Assembly: GCA_043781855.1 (NCBI GenBank)
Contig: JAYWBB010000112.1
Location: 16,115 to 80,114 of the forward strand
Reading direction: 5' to 3'
DNA: 64,000 nt
DNA from: Nevskia sp.
Lineage (GTDB): Bacteria; Pseudomonadota; Gammaproteobacteria; Nevskiales; Nevskiaceae
Shown here: positions 34,449 through 52,376 of the stretch, in pieces
How positions within the stretch are numbered: position 1 is the first letter of the stretch
How the letters are laid out: each line of letters begins with the position of its first letter
Translations under genes and position numbers: made by a program
Notes under the pieces: model-generated
Told to the model about the DNA's origin: nothing
What the model saw: the letters and a program-made list of their open reading frames with translations, nothing else
Database searches by the model: none

Positions 34449-34454
34449 TGAACC

Positions 34455-34562
<108 letters not shown>

Positions 34563-34566
34563 TCTA

Positions 34567-39699: not shown

Positions 39700-39703
39700 G
39701 ACG

Positions 39704-39832
39704 GCAGTTTCCAGTTGTTAGTTGCCAGTTGTTAGTTACAACAGCTTGTGCTCGCCCAGGGTTGAGGCTTTCGGGCGGATGCACGCTGGCTTCGTCTTCT
39801 CTGGAAACTAACAACTAGAAACTGGAAACTGC
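39704..39832. repeat. Heptad-periodic palindromic element, full copy B (nuoK-nuoL spacer)
   Basis: It has perfect 13-nt termini, GCAGTTTCCAGTT...AACTGGAAACTGC. The left arm reads as heptamers GTTTCCA GTTGTTA GTTGCCA GTTGTTA. The reverse complement of the right arm reads GTTTCCA GTTTCTA GTTGTTA GTTTCCA. The element fills almost the whole spacer and ends 2 nt before the nuoL ATG. Confidence 0.9.
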
Positions 39833-39834
39833 TT

Positions 39835-41751
39835 ATGTTCGATCTGCTCTTCATCGTTTTCCTCGCACCGCTGCTCGGCTTCCTCACGCTGGCAATCGGC
39901 CGCGGCAAGCTGTCGGACAACGTTTCGGCGGCGATCGGCGTCGGCTCGGTCGGCATCTCCGCGCTGGTCACGGCGCTGATCGGCTTCCAGTTCCTGACCC
40001 ATCCCCCCGAAGGCGGCGTGTTCACGCAGACACTGTGGACGTGGATCGACGTCGGCCGCTTCGCACCGAAATTCGCGCTGCGCCTCGACGGCCTCAGCCT
40101 GACGATGATGGGCGTGATCACGGGCGTGGGCTTCATGATCCACCTGTTCGCCTCGTGGTACATGCGCGGCGACGAGAGTTACGGCCGCTTCTTTTCGTAC
40201 ATGAATTTCTTCGTCACGAGCATGCTGTTCCTGGTGCTCGGCGACAACCTGCTGTTCCTTTACTTTGGCTGGGAAGGGGTCGGCCTTGCCTCCTATCTGC
40301 TGATCGGCTTCTGGTACAAGAACCCCGAGAACGGCGCGGCAGCGCGCAAGGCTTTCGTGGTCACGCGCGTCGGCGACACCTTCATGGCGATCGGCCTGTT
40401 CATTCTGTTCCGCGATCTCGGCACGCTGGAAATCCAGCCGCTGATGGCCGCCGCCCAGCAGCACTACACGCCGGGCTCGTCGCAGATCACGGCAATTGCA
40501 CTGCTCTTGCTCGGCGGTGCGGTCGGCAAGTCCGCACAGTTGCCGTTACAGACCTGGCTCCCGGATGCGATGGCCGGCCCCACGCCCGTCTCCGCGCTGA
40601 TCCATGCGGCAACCATGGTCACGGCGGGCGTTTACCTGATTGCGCGCACGCACGTGATCTTCGAGCTGTCGCCATTCGCGCTGTCGATGGTCGGGTTGAC
40701 CGGCGCGGCGACACTGCTGATCGCCGGCTTCACCGCACTGATGCAGACCGACATCAAGCGCGTACTGGCGTACTCGACGATGAGCCAGATCGGCTACATG
40801 TTCCTGGCACTTGGCGCGGGCGCCTGGAGCGCCGGCATTTTCCACCTGATGACGCATGCTTTCTTCAAAGCCTTGCTGTTCTTATCGAGCGGCAGCGTGA
40901 TCCTGGCCTGCCACCACGAGCAGGACATGTTCCGCATGGGCGGACTGCGCAAGCACATCCCGTTCGTGTTCGCGTGCATGCTGATCGGCACGCTGGCGCT
41001 GACCGCGTTCCCCTTCACGTCCGGCTACTACTCGAAGGACGAGATTCTCAACGAGGCTTACGCCAATGGCCATCACGGCCTCTGGCTGGCTGGCGTGGTC
41101 GGTGCGTTCCTGACCGGCGTCTACAGCTTCCGCCTGATCTTCATCACCTTCTTTGGCCCGGAACGCTGGCGCAAGCCCGCGCATCAGGCTCATGGTCATG
41201 ACGATCACGGCGCTGACCACGGCTTGGGTCCCAAGGATAATCCGCACGGCGCGCGCACGCTCGACCACCACATTCCGCTGGCCGTGCTGATGATCCTCGC
41301 GGTCGTTGGCGGCTTGATCCACCTGCCGCTGGCCGGCGTCCTGCCGCCTGCGCACGCGGAGGCAGGCGGCGAGCATTTGCCGGCGCTCATCGAGCACCTG
41401 CCGCTGATCGTCTCGCTGCTCGGCATCGCGCTGTCCTGGTTCCTGTTCCTGAAGAATCCACAGATTCCAGCCGCCCTTGCCCGTCATCCGGCTACCGCCT
41501 GGCTCGGCCGCTTCTGGCACTCTGCGTTCGGCTTCGACTGGCTCTATGACCGGATCTTCGTGAAGCCCTTCCTCGGCTTCGTTCACATCAATCGCAAGGA
41601 CGGCTTCGACATCGCCATCATGAGCGTCACCCTGCCGCTGAACTGGCTCAACGGCCTGCTGGCACGCACGCAGACCGGCCAGATCCGCTGGTACGCCGCG
41701 AGTGTCGCCGGCGGCGCGGTGCTCATCATCGCCATGGTGGCATTGTCATGA
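39835..41751 (+). CDS. nuoL: NADH-quinone oxidoreductase subunit L
   Basis: 638 aa, a polytopic antiporter-like subunit containing [16 protein letters not shown]. Confidence 0.95.
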
Positions 41752-45807: not shown

Positions 45808-46188
45808 TCACAAAGCCTGCGCGCCATCGAGTTTCGCGAGTGTGCGATCAAAAGTGCCGAGTGGCAGGTGACCATTTTTTCGGGCGATCGCAAGCACCAT
45901 GCAATCCGTGAAACCCAGCGCCGGCCGCTTCCGATAGTGAGCCAGGGCCGCGCTCACCACTTCGGAATCCTGGATCGCAACGCGATGATTCGAGAGCAGC
46001 ATTTCGAGTGCATCGGCGAGTTGTCGATCACCCAGCGAAAACACTGAACTCAGCACCCGGACAGCCTCGGCCAGCACCAGATGAGAAATCCAGATGCCGT
46101 TGTCGATGAACGCTTCCGCCTTCAACAACTGCCGTGCATCGTCCCGCATCACCAGCCGGACGACGACGTTCGTGTCAATCGCGCGCAT
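45808..46188 (-). CDS. vapC: PIN-domain toxin, VapC family, second copy
   Basis: 126 aa with MRAIDTNVVVRLVMRDD and ...GFTDCMVLAIARKNG. It overlaps the upstream antitoxin gene by 14 nt. Confidence 0.8.
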   Translation of the reverse strand: MRAIDTNVVVRLVMRDDARQLLKAEAFIDNGIWISHLVLAEAVRVLSSVFSLGDRQLADALEMLLSNHRVAIQDSEVVSAALAHYRKRPALGFTDCMVLAIARKNGHLPLGTFDRTLAKLDGAQAL

Positions 46189-46435
46189 GTTTCTTGCGCA
46201 GGTACTGCCGTATGCCGCCCTTCAGTTCCGCAAGGGTCTTGGGCTCGGGCGGTTCAGGAAACAAGACCTTGTGAATGTCCTCGAAGCTGTACTTCCCCGC
46301 ACGCCGCACCGTGACGTTCTCGCCTTCTATTTCCCATTCGAGCACCGATCCCGGACCGACTCCAAGCCGCTTCCTCACCGGCGCCGGAACCGACACCTGG
46401 CCTTGCGCCGTCAGCTTGGAAAGAGGCTTGTTCAT
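46175..46435 (-). CDS. AbrB/MazE/SpoVT-type antitoxin
   Basis: 86 aa. LTAQGQVSVPAPVRKRLGVGPGSVLEWEIEGENVTVR is a typical SpoVT/AbrB swapped-hairpin motif. Confidence 0.8.
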   Translation of the reverse strand: MNKPLSKLTAQGQVSVPAPVRKRLGVGPGSVLEWEIEGENVTVRRAGKYSFEDIHKVLFPEPPEPKTLAELKGGIRQYLRKKHARD

Positions 46436-46581: not shown

Positions 46582-46941
46582 TTAGCCGAACAAGATCAGG
46601 CCCCAGACAAACGGGACTTGCAACAGCGAAAGATGGACCGCCGCAGACCCGAGATCCTTGGCGCGTCCGGAAAGCAGGTGCCGCTCGGAGCCGATGCGAT
46701 CGACCACGACCTCGATCGCGGTATTGAGGAGCTCGACGATCAGCACCATGAGGAGGCTCATCGAAAGCACTGCGCGCTTCAGGCCGTTGTCTCCAAGCCA
46801 GAGCGCCAGCGGCAACATCACCACGAAGAGAATGAATTCGATTCTGAATGCTTCCTCTTCGCGCAGTGCCCAGCCGAGTCCCCAATAGCTGACGCGCGTG
46901 GCGCGGACGATACGCGCCACACCCTTGATGCCATCGGCCAT
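46582..46941 (-). CDS. dgkA: Diacylglycerol kinase
   Basis: 119 aa with FRIEFILFVVMLPLALWLG and LVELLNTAIEVVVDRIG, typical of DgkA. Confidence 0.9.
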   Translation of the reverse strand: MADGIKGVARIVRATRVSYWGLGWALREEEAFRIEFILFVVMLPLALWLGDNGLKRAVLSMSLLMVLIVELLNTAIEVVVDRIGSERHLLSGRAKDLGSAAVHLSLLQVPFVWGLILFG

Positions 46942-48449
46942 CAGTCTGCCGCCGCCTGGTAACGGACATCGAGATGGCGTGCGGCGCGCACGTCATCGAG
47001 CCGCCGCACCGGCATCGAGTACGGTGCACCCTTGACGTAGGCAATGTCTTTCTTCGCCTCCTCCCAGATCGCGCACATCGCGTCGACGAAGGCATCGAGC
47101 GTTTCCTTGTCTTCGGTCTCGGTCGGCTCGATCAGCAGACACTCGGGCACGAGCAGCGGGAAGTAGACGGTTGGCGCGTGGAACCCGTAGTCGAGCAGGC
47201 GTTTGGCGATATCGGTCGCACTCAGGTCGATTTCCTGTTTCTGGCGCTTGAGCGTGACGATGAACTCGTGGCTTGCGAGGCGCGTCGGAAACGCGAGATC
47301 GAAGCCGCGCTCGCGCAGGCGGGCCTGCAGATAGTTGGCGTTGAGCGTGGCGAATTCGGCGACGCGGTGCATGCCTTCGCGGCCGAGCAGGCGGGCGTAG
47401 ACATAGGCACGCATCAATACGCCGGCGTTGCCCATGAAGGTGCTGAGACGGCCGATGGTCTGGGGCAGGTCGCGCTCATCGAGCCAGCGGTAAAAGCAGT
47501 TTCCAGTTGTCAGTGGCTGGTTTCCAGAGAAGCCTTTGCTGGCTTCGTCTTTACGCCCGACGATTGGAATCGGCATGAACGGCAGCAGGCGTTCGGAAAC
47601 ACCCACCGCACCCGCGCCCGGCCCCCCGCCGCCGTGGGGTGTGCTGAAGGTCTTGTGCAGGTTCATGTGGATGACGTCGAAGCCCATGTCGCCGGGGCGG
47701 ACTTCGCCGAGGATGGCGTTGAGGTTGGCGCCGTCGTAGTAGAGCAGGCCGCCGGCCGCATGAACCAGCCCGGCAATCTCCTTGATGCGCCGCTCGAACA
47801 CGCCGAGTGTCGATGGGTTGGTCAGCATGATGCCGGCGGTGTGCGGGCCGAGCACAGCCTTGAGGCGCTCGACGTCGACGTCGCCCTCGGCATTCGTCGG
47901 GATCTCGCGCACGGTCATGCCGAGCATCGTCGCGGTCGCCGGGTTGGTGCCATGCGCGGCGTCAGGCACGAGGATTTCGCTGCGCGCCAGATCGTTTCTC
48001 GCGCGGTGATAGGCGCGAATCATCGACACACCGGCGAACTCGCCCTGCGCGCCGGCCATGGGGGTGAGTGATACGCCGGCCATGCCGGTCACGTCCTTGA
48101 GAATCTCCTGCAACTCGTACATGCAGGTGAGAAAGCCCTGCGAGTGCGACTCCGGCGCCAGTGGATGACGGCCAAGAAACTCCGGGAGCATCGCCAGCGT
48201 ATTGCAGGCGCGCGGGTTGTATTTCATCGTGCAGCTGCCGAGCGGATAGAAGTGCGTGTCGATGCTGAAGTTCAGCTTCGACAAGCGGGTGAAATGCCGC
48301 ACCGCCTGCAACTCCGAAACCTGCGGCAACGCCGGCGGCGTCTTCCGCCGCAAGTGCGACGGCACCTCCGAGCTGAGCGCTTCAAGGGGCATCTGCGCAT
48401 AGGCCGCTCGGCCCTGGCGGGAAATTTCGAAGATCAGTTTTTCGGTCAT
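46941..48449 (-). CDS. gcvPB: Glycine dehydrogenase (decarboxylating) subunit 2
   Basis: I prefer the ATG at 48449 ([14 protein letters not shown]); the ORF track starts at the GTG at 48458. It contains [10 protein letters not shown] and the PLP lysine region [19 protein letters not shown] 39-nt repeat-derived in-frame segment lies at 47496-47534. Confidence 0.95.
47496..47534 (-). repeat. Heptad-periodic element, 39-nt half copy C, in frame inside gcvPB
   Basis: The plus strand reads GCAGTTTCCAGTTGTCAGTGGCTGGTTTCCAGAGAAGCC. It matches copy D at 31 of 39 positions with no gaps. In gcvPB it is translated as [13 protein letters not shown]. Confidence 0.85.
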
Positions 48450-48469
48450 GGGTGGCACGTTCAGGAAAA

Positions 48470-48580
48470 TAAGCCCTTCTCCCTCCGGGAGAAGGGTTGG
48501 GATGAGGGCCTTTCAGATGTAGATCGCTCCCTGCTTGAAGGAGCCTCACCCCCGGCCCCTCTCCCGGAGGGAGAGGGGAG
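48470..48580. repeat. REP-type inverted pair of a roughly 40-nt GC-rich unit
   Basis: The hairpins are CCCTTCTCC-CTCCG-GGAGAAGGG (48474-48496) and CCCCTCTCCC-GGA-GGGAGAGGGG (48556-48578). The flanking GGGATGAGGGCC and GCCTCACCC mirror each other. The pair fills the tpx-gcvPB spacer. Confidence 0.8.
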
Positions 48581-48595
48581 ACCAGAATTAAAGGC

Positions 48596-49096
48596 TCAGC
48601 CCAGCGCCTTCAGCGCGGCGTCGTAATTCGGCTCTTCGGCGATCTCTTTCACCAGCTCGGCGTGCAGCACCTTGTTGTGGGCATCGAGGACGACGACGGC
48701 GCGCGCGGTCAGTCCGGCCAGCGGGCCGTTCTCGATCTTCACGCCGTATTCCTCGGCGAAGCTGTGACCGCGCATGAGCGAAAGGTTCTCGACGTTCTTG
48801 ATCCCCTCGGCGCCGCAGAAGCGCTTCTGCGCGAAGGGCAGATCAGCCGAAATGCAGAGCACGACGGTGTCCTTGAGGTTGGCCGCCTTCTCGTTGAACT
48901 TTCGTACCGACGTGGCGCAGGTCGGCGTGTCGATCGACGGGAAGATGTTCAGCACCTTCTTCTTGCCGGCGTAGTCGTGCAGCGTCACATCCTTGAGATC
49001 GCCGTTGACGATGCGGAAGCCGGGTGCATCGCTGCCGACTTTCGGCAGTTCGCCGTTGGTCTGGATGGGGTTGCCTTGCAGGGTGATCGTGGCCAT
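48596..49096 (-). CDS. tpx: Thiol peroxidase
   Basis: 166 aa. [24 protein letters not shown] and [20 protein letters not shown] are canonical Tpx sequences. Confidence 0.95.
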
Positions 49097-49129: not shown

Positions 49130-50542
49130 TCAGCAGTCGAGCGCGCTACGCAGTGCTGCGGCGTAACACGCGATGTCCTCGGCGGTTCTCGTTTCGGTAG
49201 CGCAGACCAGTAGCGCATTGCCCAACTCCGGATAATGCCGCGAAAGATCATGGCCCCCGAGAATACCGTGCCGTGCGAGTGCGGCGAGCACCGGCGCCGC
49301 TGGCCGCGGCAGACGGATCACCGCCTCGTGGAAACACTCGCCGGTGAATGCCGCTTCAACGCCGGGAATCGCGGTCAGTGCTTCGACCAGGGCTCGCGTA
49401 TTCGCCATCGAATGAGCTGCCACGCGGCTCAGCCCTTCCGGGCCAAGCAGGGACATGTGAATCGTCGCCGCCGTAACCAGCAGGCCCTGATTGGTGCAGA
49501 TGTTCGAGGTCGCCTTGCTGCGGCGGATGTGCTGCTCGCGTGCCTGGAGCGTCAGCGTATAGCCCGGCTTGCCGTCGAGATCGACCGTGCGGCCGACGAT
49601 GCGGCCCGGCATCTGGCGTACGAACTGTTGCTTCGCAGTGAGGAAACCGAAGTACGGTCCGCCCGAAGCCAAAGGCGCGCCGAGCGGCTGGCCTTCGCCG
49701 CAGCAAATGTCTGCGCCCTTCTGGCCGGCGGCGACAACCACTCCCGCACCCGCCTCGCGAACCGTGTCGGAGCTGCCCCATTCACCGGGCGGTTTCAATA
49801 CTGCCAGCGAAACCGGATTGACCAGCGCGACAACGAGCGCGCCATTGGCATGCGCCCAGTCGGTGATCGCATCGACGTCTTCCAGCACGCCGAAGAAGTT
49901 CGGCTGTGCGATCACGACAGCCGTGATGCCCTGCCCTTCGAAGCGCTGCAACTGCTGCGGCAGTGTGGTACCAATTTCGGCGCAGTAGACCAGCGACACT
50001 TGCTCCAGCCCCTGCGCTTCCGTGATCGCATGGACCGCTTCGCGGTAGAACGGATGCACTGCGGCGGGCATCAGGATCTTGCCGCTGCCGGCCGACGGAT
50101 TCGCACGCACCGCCATCAGCAGCGCTTCGGCGAGTGCCGACGCGCCGTCGTACATCGAGGCGTTGCTGACCTCCATGCCGGTCAGCGCGCACATCATGCT
50201 CTGGTACTCGTAGAGCAGTTGCAGCGTGCCCTGGCTGGCCTCGGCCTGATACGGCGTGTAGGCCGAGTAGAATTCGCCGCGCGTCGTGATCTCCCAGACG
50301 GCCGCCGGAATGTGGTGCTCGTAGGCGCCGGCGCCGATGAAGTTCAGCAGCTGGCCGTCCTGGGCCGCGCGGCCGTGCATGAGCCGCGCGATCGCCATTT
50401 CCGAAACGCGCTCCGGAACTTTCGTCAGGCCCTTGCAGAACAGCTCGGCGGGAATCTCGCCGAACAGTGCGTCGGTACTCGGCTTGCCGATGACGGCGAG
50501 CATTTCGGCGACATCGGTTTCGGTGTGGGGGATGAAGGGCAT
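49130..50542 (-). CDS. gcvPA: Glycine dehydrogenase (decarboxylating) subunit 1
   Basis: 470 aa with [50 protein letters not shown] and [19 protein letters not shown]. Confidence 0.95.
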
Positions 50543-50545
50543 GAA

Positions 50546-50584
50546 GCGGTTTCCAGTTTCCGGTTGTTGGTTGGCAGAGAAGCC
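50546..50584 (-). repeat. Heptad-periodic element, 39-nt half copy D (gcvH-gcvPA spacer)
   Basis: The plus strand reads GCGGTTTCCAGTTTCCGGTTGTTGGTTGGCAGAGAAGCC. On the coding strand it ends in ...AACTGGAAACCGC, then TTC, then the gcvPA ATG. Confidence 0.85.
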
Positions 50585-50593
50585 ACTGCGCGA

Positions 50594-52139: not shown

Positions 52140-52315
52140 ACCGCCCCTCTGTCCTTTTACCTGAGAGTTCAGCGCCAATCCGCGCATGCCCCATCGGTGG
52201 ACCGCGCGAGCGGCCGCTCTCCAGAGTCAGCGAACACCTTGCTCCATTTTGCCTGAGCGATTCCGGGCGGATTTGCGCCTTCGGCGCCGTCGTGTACCGA
52301 CGGACTCTCGCAAGG
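52140..52315 (-). promoter_or_regulatory. Tandem glycine riboswitch (two aptamers) in the gcvT leader
   Basis: On the minus-strand RNA, aptamer 1 has GCGAGAGUCCG...CGCCGAAGGCGCAA...CUCAGGCAAAAUGGA. Aptamer 2 has CUCUGGAGAGCGG...CACCGAUGGGGCA...CUCUCAGGUAAAAGGACAGAG. Both match the conserved GGAGAG / CCGAAGGGGCAA / CUCAGGCAAAAGGAC cores. The position upstream of gcvT is the classical one. Confidence 0.9.
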
Positions 52316-52376
52316 GGTTCATTGCTGGGCCAACTATAACGTTCCCTGCCGGCGGTTGCGAGAACCGGCGGCAGAC

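Follow-up and report, generated by a model that had tools for sequence, protein, structure and literature searches.

In-frame copy of a heptad-repeat arm in gcvPB of a Nevskia sp. and probable recurrent repeat insertion at the same codon position

A stretch of 64,000 nucleotides from Nevskia sp. (assembly GCA_043781855.1, contig JAYWBB010000112.1, positions 16,115 to 80,114 of the forward strand; hereafter called the window) was analyzed for a short repeat located inside gcvPB, the gene encoding glycine dehydrogenase subunit 2 (P-protein beta). The best explanation, to which we assign a probability of about 0.8, is that one arm of a dispersed heptad repeat was copied in frame into a gcvPB site where repeats were inserted recurrently. 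That the gcvPB segment is a derived, in-frame and tolerated repeat insertion can be stated with high confidence. A single insert of this kind is known from other systems; what is new is that several repeat families have used a single codon position recurrently, together with hairpins derived from the flanking sequence and a second site in GcvPA. Coordinates of all features are given in Table 1.

The gcvPB product comprises 502 amino acids counted from the ATG; the listed open reading frame (ORF) opens three codons earlier at a GTG. It matched T. thermophilus 1WYT_B with E=1.9e-145, and the Pfam families PF02347 and PF21478 were found on P0001, a protein identical to the GcvPB of the window. 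The protein has the HKTF motif of the pyridoxal phosphate (PLP) lysine with an invariant K266, the GGGGPG motif and the P-protein fold. The reverse complement of positions 47496-47534 is GGCTTCTCTGGAAACCAGCCACTGACAACTGGAAACTGC and is read in the gcvPB frame as 13 residues. A preliminary description of the window had placed this 39-nt copy, named C, in the undisturbed gcvPB frame; the in-frame translation and the protein context quoted there were both confirmed.

Copy C is one of six arms in the window which share one design, namely GGCTTCT, four heptads of the CTGGAAA/CTAACAA type and CTGCTT. The units of arm C are GGCTTCT, CTGGAAA, CCAGCCA, CTGACAA, CTGGAAA and CTGCTTT, and they encode 14 residues. 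A leave-one-out nhmmer profile built from the five other arms matched arm C at E=6.6e-10 and gave no further match in the 64 kb besides its five source arms. The arms consist of tandem units and are not self-complementary; the sequence CTGGAAAC occurs 13 times in the window as compared to 1.29 expected occurrences. Tandem Repeats Finder reported a period of 7 at 34456-34485, 34535-34560 and 39801-39831, and the six arms were aligned in heptad register. Four of the other arms form the two-arm elements A and B. Element A, (AGTTTCC)4 ... (CTGGAAA)3-4, begins at the stop codon of nuoF and reaches almost to the ATG of nuoG, and element B lies between the nuoK stop codon and the nuoL ATG; RNA folding predicted a long hairpin for both (A, -55.5 kcal/mol, z=-5.6; B, z=-4.5). 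Arm D, single and noncoding, takes up the spacer between gcvH and gcvPA, with its end at the ATG of gcvPA. The repeat in this genome usually fills spacers of co-oriented genes from stop codon to start codon. Arm D had been called nearly identical to arm C, a statement to be corrected to 33 of 42 positions (79%).

Local polymerase slippage in a hypervariable loop would be another source of the segment, as would an assembly artefact or a pseudogene; in none of these cases would it be a copy of a dispersed repeat. Heptamers are indeed prone to slippage (Mrazek 2007, as cited in PMC4679880 and PMC4692102), but the similarity of arm C to the noncoding copies extends to the non-repetitive, non-heptad ends. 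The same match upholds the earlier proposal that the sequence came from the repeat and not from the protein. Furthermore, nine contigs, representing at least three samples or assemblies and different assemblers, encode an identical 502-residue protein; hence, the insert is not an assembly artefact. A pseudogene is contradicted by the intact ORF with all catalytic motifs conserved. This group of explanations is very improbable and already largely refuted.

A perfect 6-bp stem, GAAGCC-AGCAAA-GGCTTC, is located directly upstream of arm C at the 5' edge of the insert. A left partner arm seems to have been lost, as the left half of the stem resembles the inner end of such an arm (AGA(C)GAAGCC compared to GGCTTCTCT). 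Judged from the sequence, the gcvPB insert is most readily interpreted as a two-arm element from which most of the left arm would have disappeared. The RNA fold of this copy was not significant (z=-1.4).

The size of the insertion was determined from the stretch between the HKTF and SIGR motifs, which comprises 70 residues in the window protein and 54 residues in the baseline of its relatives. The net gain therefore amounts to 16 codons (48 nt) and not to 13 codons as described before. The span holding this gain covers 19 codons, and the exact borders of the insert are ambiguous by a few codons. In the alignment with 1WYT_B, 15 of the 19 residues of the insert region stood opposite gaps. The 120 closest homologs were 79-100% identical and of Nevskia, Stagnimonas, Hydrocarboniphaga, Solimonas and Stenotrophobium types; the 54-residue baseline was found in 81 of them. 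Outgroup loci, mostly distant relatives obtained from contig scans, belonged to other Gammaproteobacteria and Betaproteobacteria and had 54-61 residues (72 genome loci) or 54-60 residues (79 metagenome loci) in this stretch; more than seven extra residues occurred in none of the 72 and none of the 79. The ortholog alignment proposed in the preliminary description was thus carried out and showed the segment to be absent from 151 outgroup loci, from most Nevskiaceae-type homologs and from 1WYT_B. The insertion is lineage-specific and derived. Ortholog comparison and repeat match together support the earlier view of a repeat element inserted into, and tolerated by, an enzyme of an essential pathway.

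Extra residues, 9 to 41 in number and very different in sequence, were present at exactly this position in 27 of the 120 closest GcvPB homologs when inserts of eight or more residues were counted. When a tree was calculated with the site masked, empty and insert-bearing alleles were interleaved, and Fitch parsimony required at least 18 gains or losses with an empty root state. Twelve gcvPB alleles of close relatives were fetched as DNA. Insert-bearing alleles had closely similar empty sisters: P0002 (+51 nt) was 94.6% identical to P0004, P0034 (+96 nt) was 94.1% identical to P0033, and P0047 (+84 nt) was 98.4% identical to P0091. The 210 nt on each side of the site followed the phylogeny of the clades and not the type of insert, which argues that the insertions arose in place; transfer of inserts by homologous recombination was rejected for this reason.

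The inserts fall into families which are unrelated to one another. Single arms were built of CTGGAAA heptads (window protein, P0002), CGGGAAA heptads (P0065) or CGGGAAT heptads (P0046), and two-arm hairpins with CGTGAGG...CCTCACG heptads were found in P0034, P0082 and P0078. Four heptads per arm were also counted in the inserts of P0065, P0046, P0034 and P0078. The two-arm copy inside the gene at locus L086 folded with -78.8 kcal/mol (z=-5.7). P0029 from Stagnimonas aquatica (locus L169) carries a palindrome resembling repetitive extragenic palindromic (REP) sequences, which encodes PHPNPTPQAGEG (PHPNP..QAGEG). In P0047 (locus L170) a 48-nt palindrome, GCCGTTGGCTTATCGCGGAGTGACTCAATGTCACTCCGCGACCCGGCCAACGGC, is nested in frame inside a REP-like insert. 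We conclude that insertion at this gcvPB site was very probably recurrent.

The same distribution might have arisen from a single ancient insertion in the family ancestor, provided that it was lost precisely and repeatedly and that gene conversion homogenised the retained copies to the repeat family of the respective genome. In favour of this history, inserts that form hairpins are easily deleted, and the loop starts with CAACAGC in both P0078 and P0082. Heptad variants also differ between sister genomes in orthologous intergenic elements, which implies that turnover or conversion does occur. Against this history, the parsimony root and approximately 150 outgroup loci are empty, and all empty alleles have 54 residues with a conserved GKxGxxY, a result that imprecise deletions would not yield. 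Moreover, element types as unrelated as REP-like palindromes and heptads, one insertion nested in another, and stems of inverted flanking sequence that fit the synonymous codons of each lineage would remain to be accounted for. An ancient single insertion is therefore improbable.

Apparently, the inserts are translated. Every insert observed kept the frame and contained no stop codon. In P0034, P0078 and P0082 the unit CGTGAGG is changed to CGGGAGG exactly in those heptads whose phase would read TGA, and the arm of element B, when put in the frame of C, has a TAA where C has CAG. Inserts carrying such stop-avoiding substitutions are presumably read by the ribosome. Translational bypassing, as in T4 gene 60 or in the mitochondrial byp-like manner, and removal at the RNA or protein level were considered and are unlikely for inserts that are in frame, stop-free and stop-avoiding. 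The inserted peptide would be a neutral passenger tolerated by the enzyme.

An AlphaFold2 model of GcvPB calculated with diverse representatives reached a mean predicted local distance difference test score (pLDDT) of 85.4 and a predicted template modeling score (pTM) of 0.81; an earlier model calculated from homologs at least 79% identical had a mean pLDDT of 53.9 and was discarded. A Foldseek search with the model returned the P-protein beta structures 9a73_B and 1wyt_B with TM scores of 0.82-0.87. The insert was located about 35 residues past the PLP lysine K266, between the model strands 297-299 (IVG) and 320-322 (YRW), and the pLDDT fell below 50 at residues 304-312. It is accordingly modelled as a low-confidence loop between two strands, an outcome in favour of the view taken in the preliminary description, and is predicted to form a flexible, presumably surface-exposed loop there. 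Length at this position varied across 150 diverse representatives of the GcvPB family, and HMMER alignments to single-chain P-proteins break at it. The insert thus sits at the one internal position of GcvPB which tolerates changes in length, and the site marks a P-protein loop accepting 9-41 extra residues.

Examination of the junctions revealed that in heptad-type inserts the first bases past the Val-Val-Gly codons are an inverted copy of these codons. Perfect stems were found in P0065 (locus L173, CCGTGGTCGGC-TTG-GCCGACCACGG, 11 bp), P0034 (L086, CGGTCGTCGGAC-TTTC-GTCCGACGACCG, 12 bp) and P0082 (L172, CCGTCGTCGGC-GTT-GCCGACGACGG, 11 bp). P0078 (L175, GTCGTCGGC-TTC-GCCGATGAC) has a 9-bp stem with one G.T pair, and in P0046 (L174, GTCATCGG-CCGAA-CCGACGAC) a stem of 7/8 was read from the sequence. 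The right stem arm tracks lineage-specific synonymous changes of the left arm (GTG/GTC, CCC/CCG, GGC/GGA); because of this covariation, it was either templated by the local flank or maintained in agreement with it. The inverted flank copy also accounts for the motif G-[LVF]-A-D-D recurring in insert-bearing proteins. Perfect stems in the 151 empty alleles did not exceed 7 bp, the best one per allele being most often 4 bp long. A small native quasi-palindrome, GTCG...CGAC, is formed in these alleles by the Val-Val-Gly and Asp codons.

Quasi-palindromes are mutational hot spots at which the nascent strand copies the other arm and thereby perfects or extends the palindrome (PMC7202029, PMC6357072). 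Similarly, native stems of at most 7 bp stand here beside flank-built stems of 9-12 bp; unlike the base changes and short templated patches of quasi-palindrome template switching, a dispersed repeat of 40-100 nt would have been captured. The junctions suggest a hairpin or template-switch route and not transposition. We know of no description of such a capture of a 40-100 nt dispersed repeat beside a perfected hairpin. One arm and the partner-arm stub of a short non-autonomous heptad repeat may have entered gcvPB in the following way: the native quasi-palindrome would fold during replication or repair, the nascent strand would first copy its own flank and generate a perfect hairpin of 9-12 bp, and it would next switch to a dispersed heptad element as template. 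Repeats would then spread by templated copying without a transposase, in a manner different from classical cut-and-paste transposition. This mechanism is put forward tentatively. Still more speculative is the idea that the sites around gcvPB codon 300 and in gcvPA are natural traps which record the birth of four-unit heptamer repeats by templated copying; if it were true, the abundance, the four-unit size and the fast turnover of xanthomonad and cyanobacterial heptamer repeats would become testable at one locus.

Since the native sequence of the gcvPB site is a small quasi-palindrome, we are inclined, with some reservation, to regard it as a true mutational hot spot and not as a merely permissive position. 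At loci L172, L173 and L174 no heptad arrays other than the gcvPB copies were present in the 3.7-21.5 kb retrieved, and NuoG (911 residues) had no recurrent insert site among its 120 closest homologs. A second in-frame insert of 17 residues was found inside gcvPA between PPGEWGS and KGADI. It is missing in eight of eight Nevskiaceae-type relatives and in at least 111 of 133 loci, and other inserts of 13-41 residues occur at the same GcvPA point in about 12 of 120 homologs. Its DNA contains degenerate CGNGAGG-like heptads; a search for a source copy in the window and in the fetched loci gave only chance matches of 8-15 nt. The 3' end of this insert resembles its downstream flank in inverted orientation (GTCGCCGCC compared to the reverse complement of GGCGCCGAC, 8/9), a similarity dismissed as too weak in GC-rich DNA.

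Several points weigh against a recurrent hot spot with the mechanism outlined above. The loop is intrinsically length-tolerant across the GcvPB family, and the recurrent site of GcvPA itself may indicate that an unusually permissive P-protein is the cause of the recurrence. NuoG is a single control protein whose homologs are more divergent than the GcvPB set, and the collection of full-length ORF matches is biased towards in-frame survivors. The gcvPB copy of the window shows only a 5-bp TCGTC/GACGA pair besides the 6-bp GAAGCC/GGCTTC stub, and P0002 has no inverted-flank hairpin signature; support for template switching thus comes from four other lineages.

These points lead to the alternative that small repeats are inserted at a high rate throughout Nevskiaceae-type genomes, so that selection leaves those in tolerant loops visible and the gcvPB site is not mutationally special. 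The variable loop length and the second site in GcvPA are in line with it, as is the occurrence of REPs inside ORFs of many species (PMC3733652). Under such a flux, a recurrent site would be expected in NuoG, which is nearly twice as long, and heptad arrays in the many spacers of L172, L173 and L174, where the gcvPB copy was the sole one; inverted-flank hairpins, moreover, point to a DNA process specific to the site. We consider this alternative unlikely.

Additionally, the insert might be adaptive, either as an mRNA structure or protein-binding site of the operon or as a new surface loop modulating the P-protein. A function in translation is conceivable for the noncoding copies, which lie exactly where the stop codon of one gene is followed by the start codon of the next (compare PMC4679880). 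Inserts occur in both P-protein subunits of the organism, and two-arm copies inside the gene, for example that of L086, fold very stably. On the other hand, sequence, length and family of the insert vary freely among close relatives, most of which have none; the window copy lacks a significant fold and its peptide is predicted to be disordered. An adaptive role thus has little probability.

Heptameric repeats with the units GGGAATC in Xanthomonas and GGGGA(C/T)T in cyanobacteria show a preference for four units and occur in convergent pairs (Rehm et al. 2015, PMC4692102). They lie between aligned ORFs near stop and start codons, have no link to mobile elements and are of unknown function (PMC4692102). 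The window repeat resembles them in its 7-nt unit, in the four heptads between the end motifs of all six arms, in the convergent inverted pairs A (nuoF/nuoG) and B (nuoK/nuoL), and in its position: the pairs and arm D (gcvH/gcvPA) are flanked by co-oriented ORFs, with stop or start codons no more than 50 bp away and the stop sometimes overlapped. No association with a transposase is known, variation among close relatives is rapid, and the host family is related to Xanthomonadales; units of relatives are CGGGAAT (L174) and CGGGAAA (L173), and L174 carries literal GGGAATC units. The window unit TGGAAAC/CTGGAAA, however, matches at 5/7 positions and contains GG only; lacking a G3 tract, it does not conform to the Xanthomonas sequence definition or to its G-quadruplex rationale, although the architecture fits. 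A G-quadruplex role was rejected, as the window unit is without GGG tracts. Further differences are the conserved non-heptad ends GGCTTCT and CTGCTT of the window arms. In-frame protein insertion, a recurrent coding hot spot or inverted-flank junctions have not been described for Xanthomonas repeats.

The preliminary description had drawn an analogy to Rickettsia palindromic elements (RPE), which were reported by Ogata et al. (2000, 2002). RPE are small non-autonomous repeats which lie in frame in housekeeping genes and are translated into additional residues, placed in loops and compatible with the fold (PMC10969869). The analogy is apt for the manner of working, since the gcvPB copy also lies in frame in a conserved gene and encodes a peptide in a fold-compatible loop, but the element itself, a single arm with z=-1.4, is no RPE. 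By their descriptions, RPE are full palindromes of about 100-150 bp which belong to defined families and come from an obligate intracellular alphaproteobacterium, whereas the gcvPB element is a heptad single arm of 42-57 nt and its host a free-living gammaproteobacterium. Many different genes contain RPE sites, unlike the reused gcvPB codon position. To our knowledge, recurrent reuse of one codon position has not been reported for RPE, and in-frame selfish repeats in housekeeping enzymes are textbook knowledge only for Rickettsia. The present finding extends such repeats to free-living Nevskiaceae-like bacteria and to the Xanthomonas-type heptamer class. At least 18 events, several repeat families and alleles up to 98% identical provide clean before/after junctions, which are rare for bacterial small repeats. 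For genome annotation, differences in GcvPB or GcvPA length within this group are to be attributed to repeat insertion and not to errors. The 16-codon size, the reuse of the site, the GcvPA insert and the membership in the Xanthomonas four-unit heptamer class had escaped the preliminary description.

REPs are short dispersed palindromes, mostly extragenic near gene ends and sometimes wholly within ORFs, where they code for additional residues of linkers or loops (Di Nocera et al. 2013, PMC3733652). A likeness to REP and REPIN elements exists in so far as a REP-like family was inserted at the same GcvPB site in Stagnimonas aquatica (P0029). REPs are imperfect palindromes of 20-40 nt, headed by GTAG or CGTC, for which a link to REP-associated tyrosine transposases (RAYT) is common, unlike the heptad arms with their lack of self-complementarity. 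Elements A and B have inverted arms, but no flanking target-site duplication was seen by eye, in contrast to miniature inverted-repeat transposable elements (MITE); four gcvPB inserts begin with the inverted upstream flank instead. TAACTGA heptamer direct repeats of Beggiatoaceae and cyanobacteria form arrays upstream of start codons (MacGregor 2015, PMC4679880). Like the window repeat, they are heptamers of few units ending a few nt from start codons, usually without a canonical Shine-Dalgarno sequence, and the core AACTG is common to both. A few lie within ORFs, but mostly near protein termini and not in the middle of an enzyme; furthermore, they are direct repeats without paired inverted arms, and taxa and unit differ.

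Table 1. Location of gcvPB, its insert, the other heptad-repeat copies and the gcvPA insert in the window
Feature	Position	Strand	Evidence or description
gcvPB (glycine dehydrogenase subunit 2, P-protein beta)	46941-48449	minus	ORF, 1WYT_B match, Pfam, Foldseek
Span holding the net +48 nt (16 codons) compared to empty alleles	47493-47549	minus	homolog alignments, sister-allele DNA
Heptad-repeat arm C, inside gcvPB	about 47492-47534 (42-43 nt, six heptads)	minus	leave-one-out nhmmer, arm alignment, in-frame translation
Inverted stub at 5' edge of gcvPB insert	47529-47546	minus	longest perfect hairpin there; RNA fold
Single arm D, noncoding	50542-50586	minus	nhmmer profile, arm alignment
Two-arm element A	34450-34565 (arms 34450-34495 / 34520-34565)	plus	nhmmer, RNA fold, Pfam flanks
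Two-arm element B	39700-39836 (arms 39700-39744 / 39791-39836)	plus	nhmmer, RNA fold, Pfam flanks
gcvPA	49130-50542	minus	
Second in-frame insert, inside gcvPA	49721-49771	minus	51 nt / 17 aa

Elements A and B span the distance from stop to start codon exactly, and a hairpin would bring the two codons together; near the start codon, GGA occurs nowhere but in their last heptad. These elements may have a role in translational coupling or mRNA processing. Binding of CsrA, S1 or Csp to the GGA-containing heptads ahead of start codons was considered as well, as a subject apart from the gcvPB insertion. In relatives, the same spacers hold heptad elements with genome-specific units. In gcvPB, identity between the sister genomes L084 and L085 is about 95%, but their heptad elements are entirely different (L084 3470-3600 compared to L085 610-665, and L084 3970-4045 compared to L085 1036-1112). 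A two-arm element of L084 replaces the entire gcvT-gcvH spacer and alters the GcvT C-terminus (..ILV* to ..ILPAVTGG*), and the gcvH-gcvPA spacers of both genomes contain differing heptad variants. Turnover of these elements is much faster than that of the genes. A similar two-arm heptad element, GTTTTTC GTTTCGC ... CGAAAAC TGGAAAC, was found in L042 (7380-7480), a metagenome-assembled genome of Lamprocystis (Chromatiaceae), which suggests that the architecture reaches beyond Nevskiaceae and Xanthomonadales.

In the neighbourhood of gcvPB, a pair of genes for a MazE-like antitoxin and a PIN-domain toxin (45808-46435, minus strand) lies between dagK and pfkB; it is present on the contigs of this organism and not at that place in L085, L086 and L169. 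Thiol peroxidase is encoded at 48596-49096, and in this family the gene is wedged between gcvPA and gcvPB. In the tpx-gcvPB spacer (48459-48595) there are two palindromes, CCCCTCTCCCTCCGGGAGAGGGG... and CCCTCATCCCAACCCTTCTCCCGGAGGGAGAAGGG, which are REP-like and share their type with the in-frame element at the gcvPB site of Stagnimonas aquatica. An Rfam search of the window at the gathering threshold assigned the heptad elements to no family and had a glycine riboswitch as its sole match. This aptamer (RF00504, 61.7 bits) is located at 52230-52322 on the minus strand upstream of gcvT, as is expected for a gcvT-H-PA-(tpx)-PB operon.

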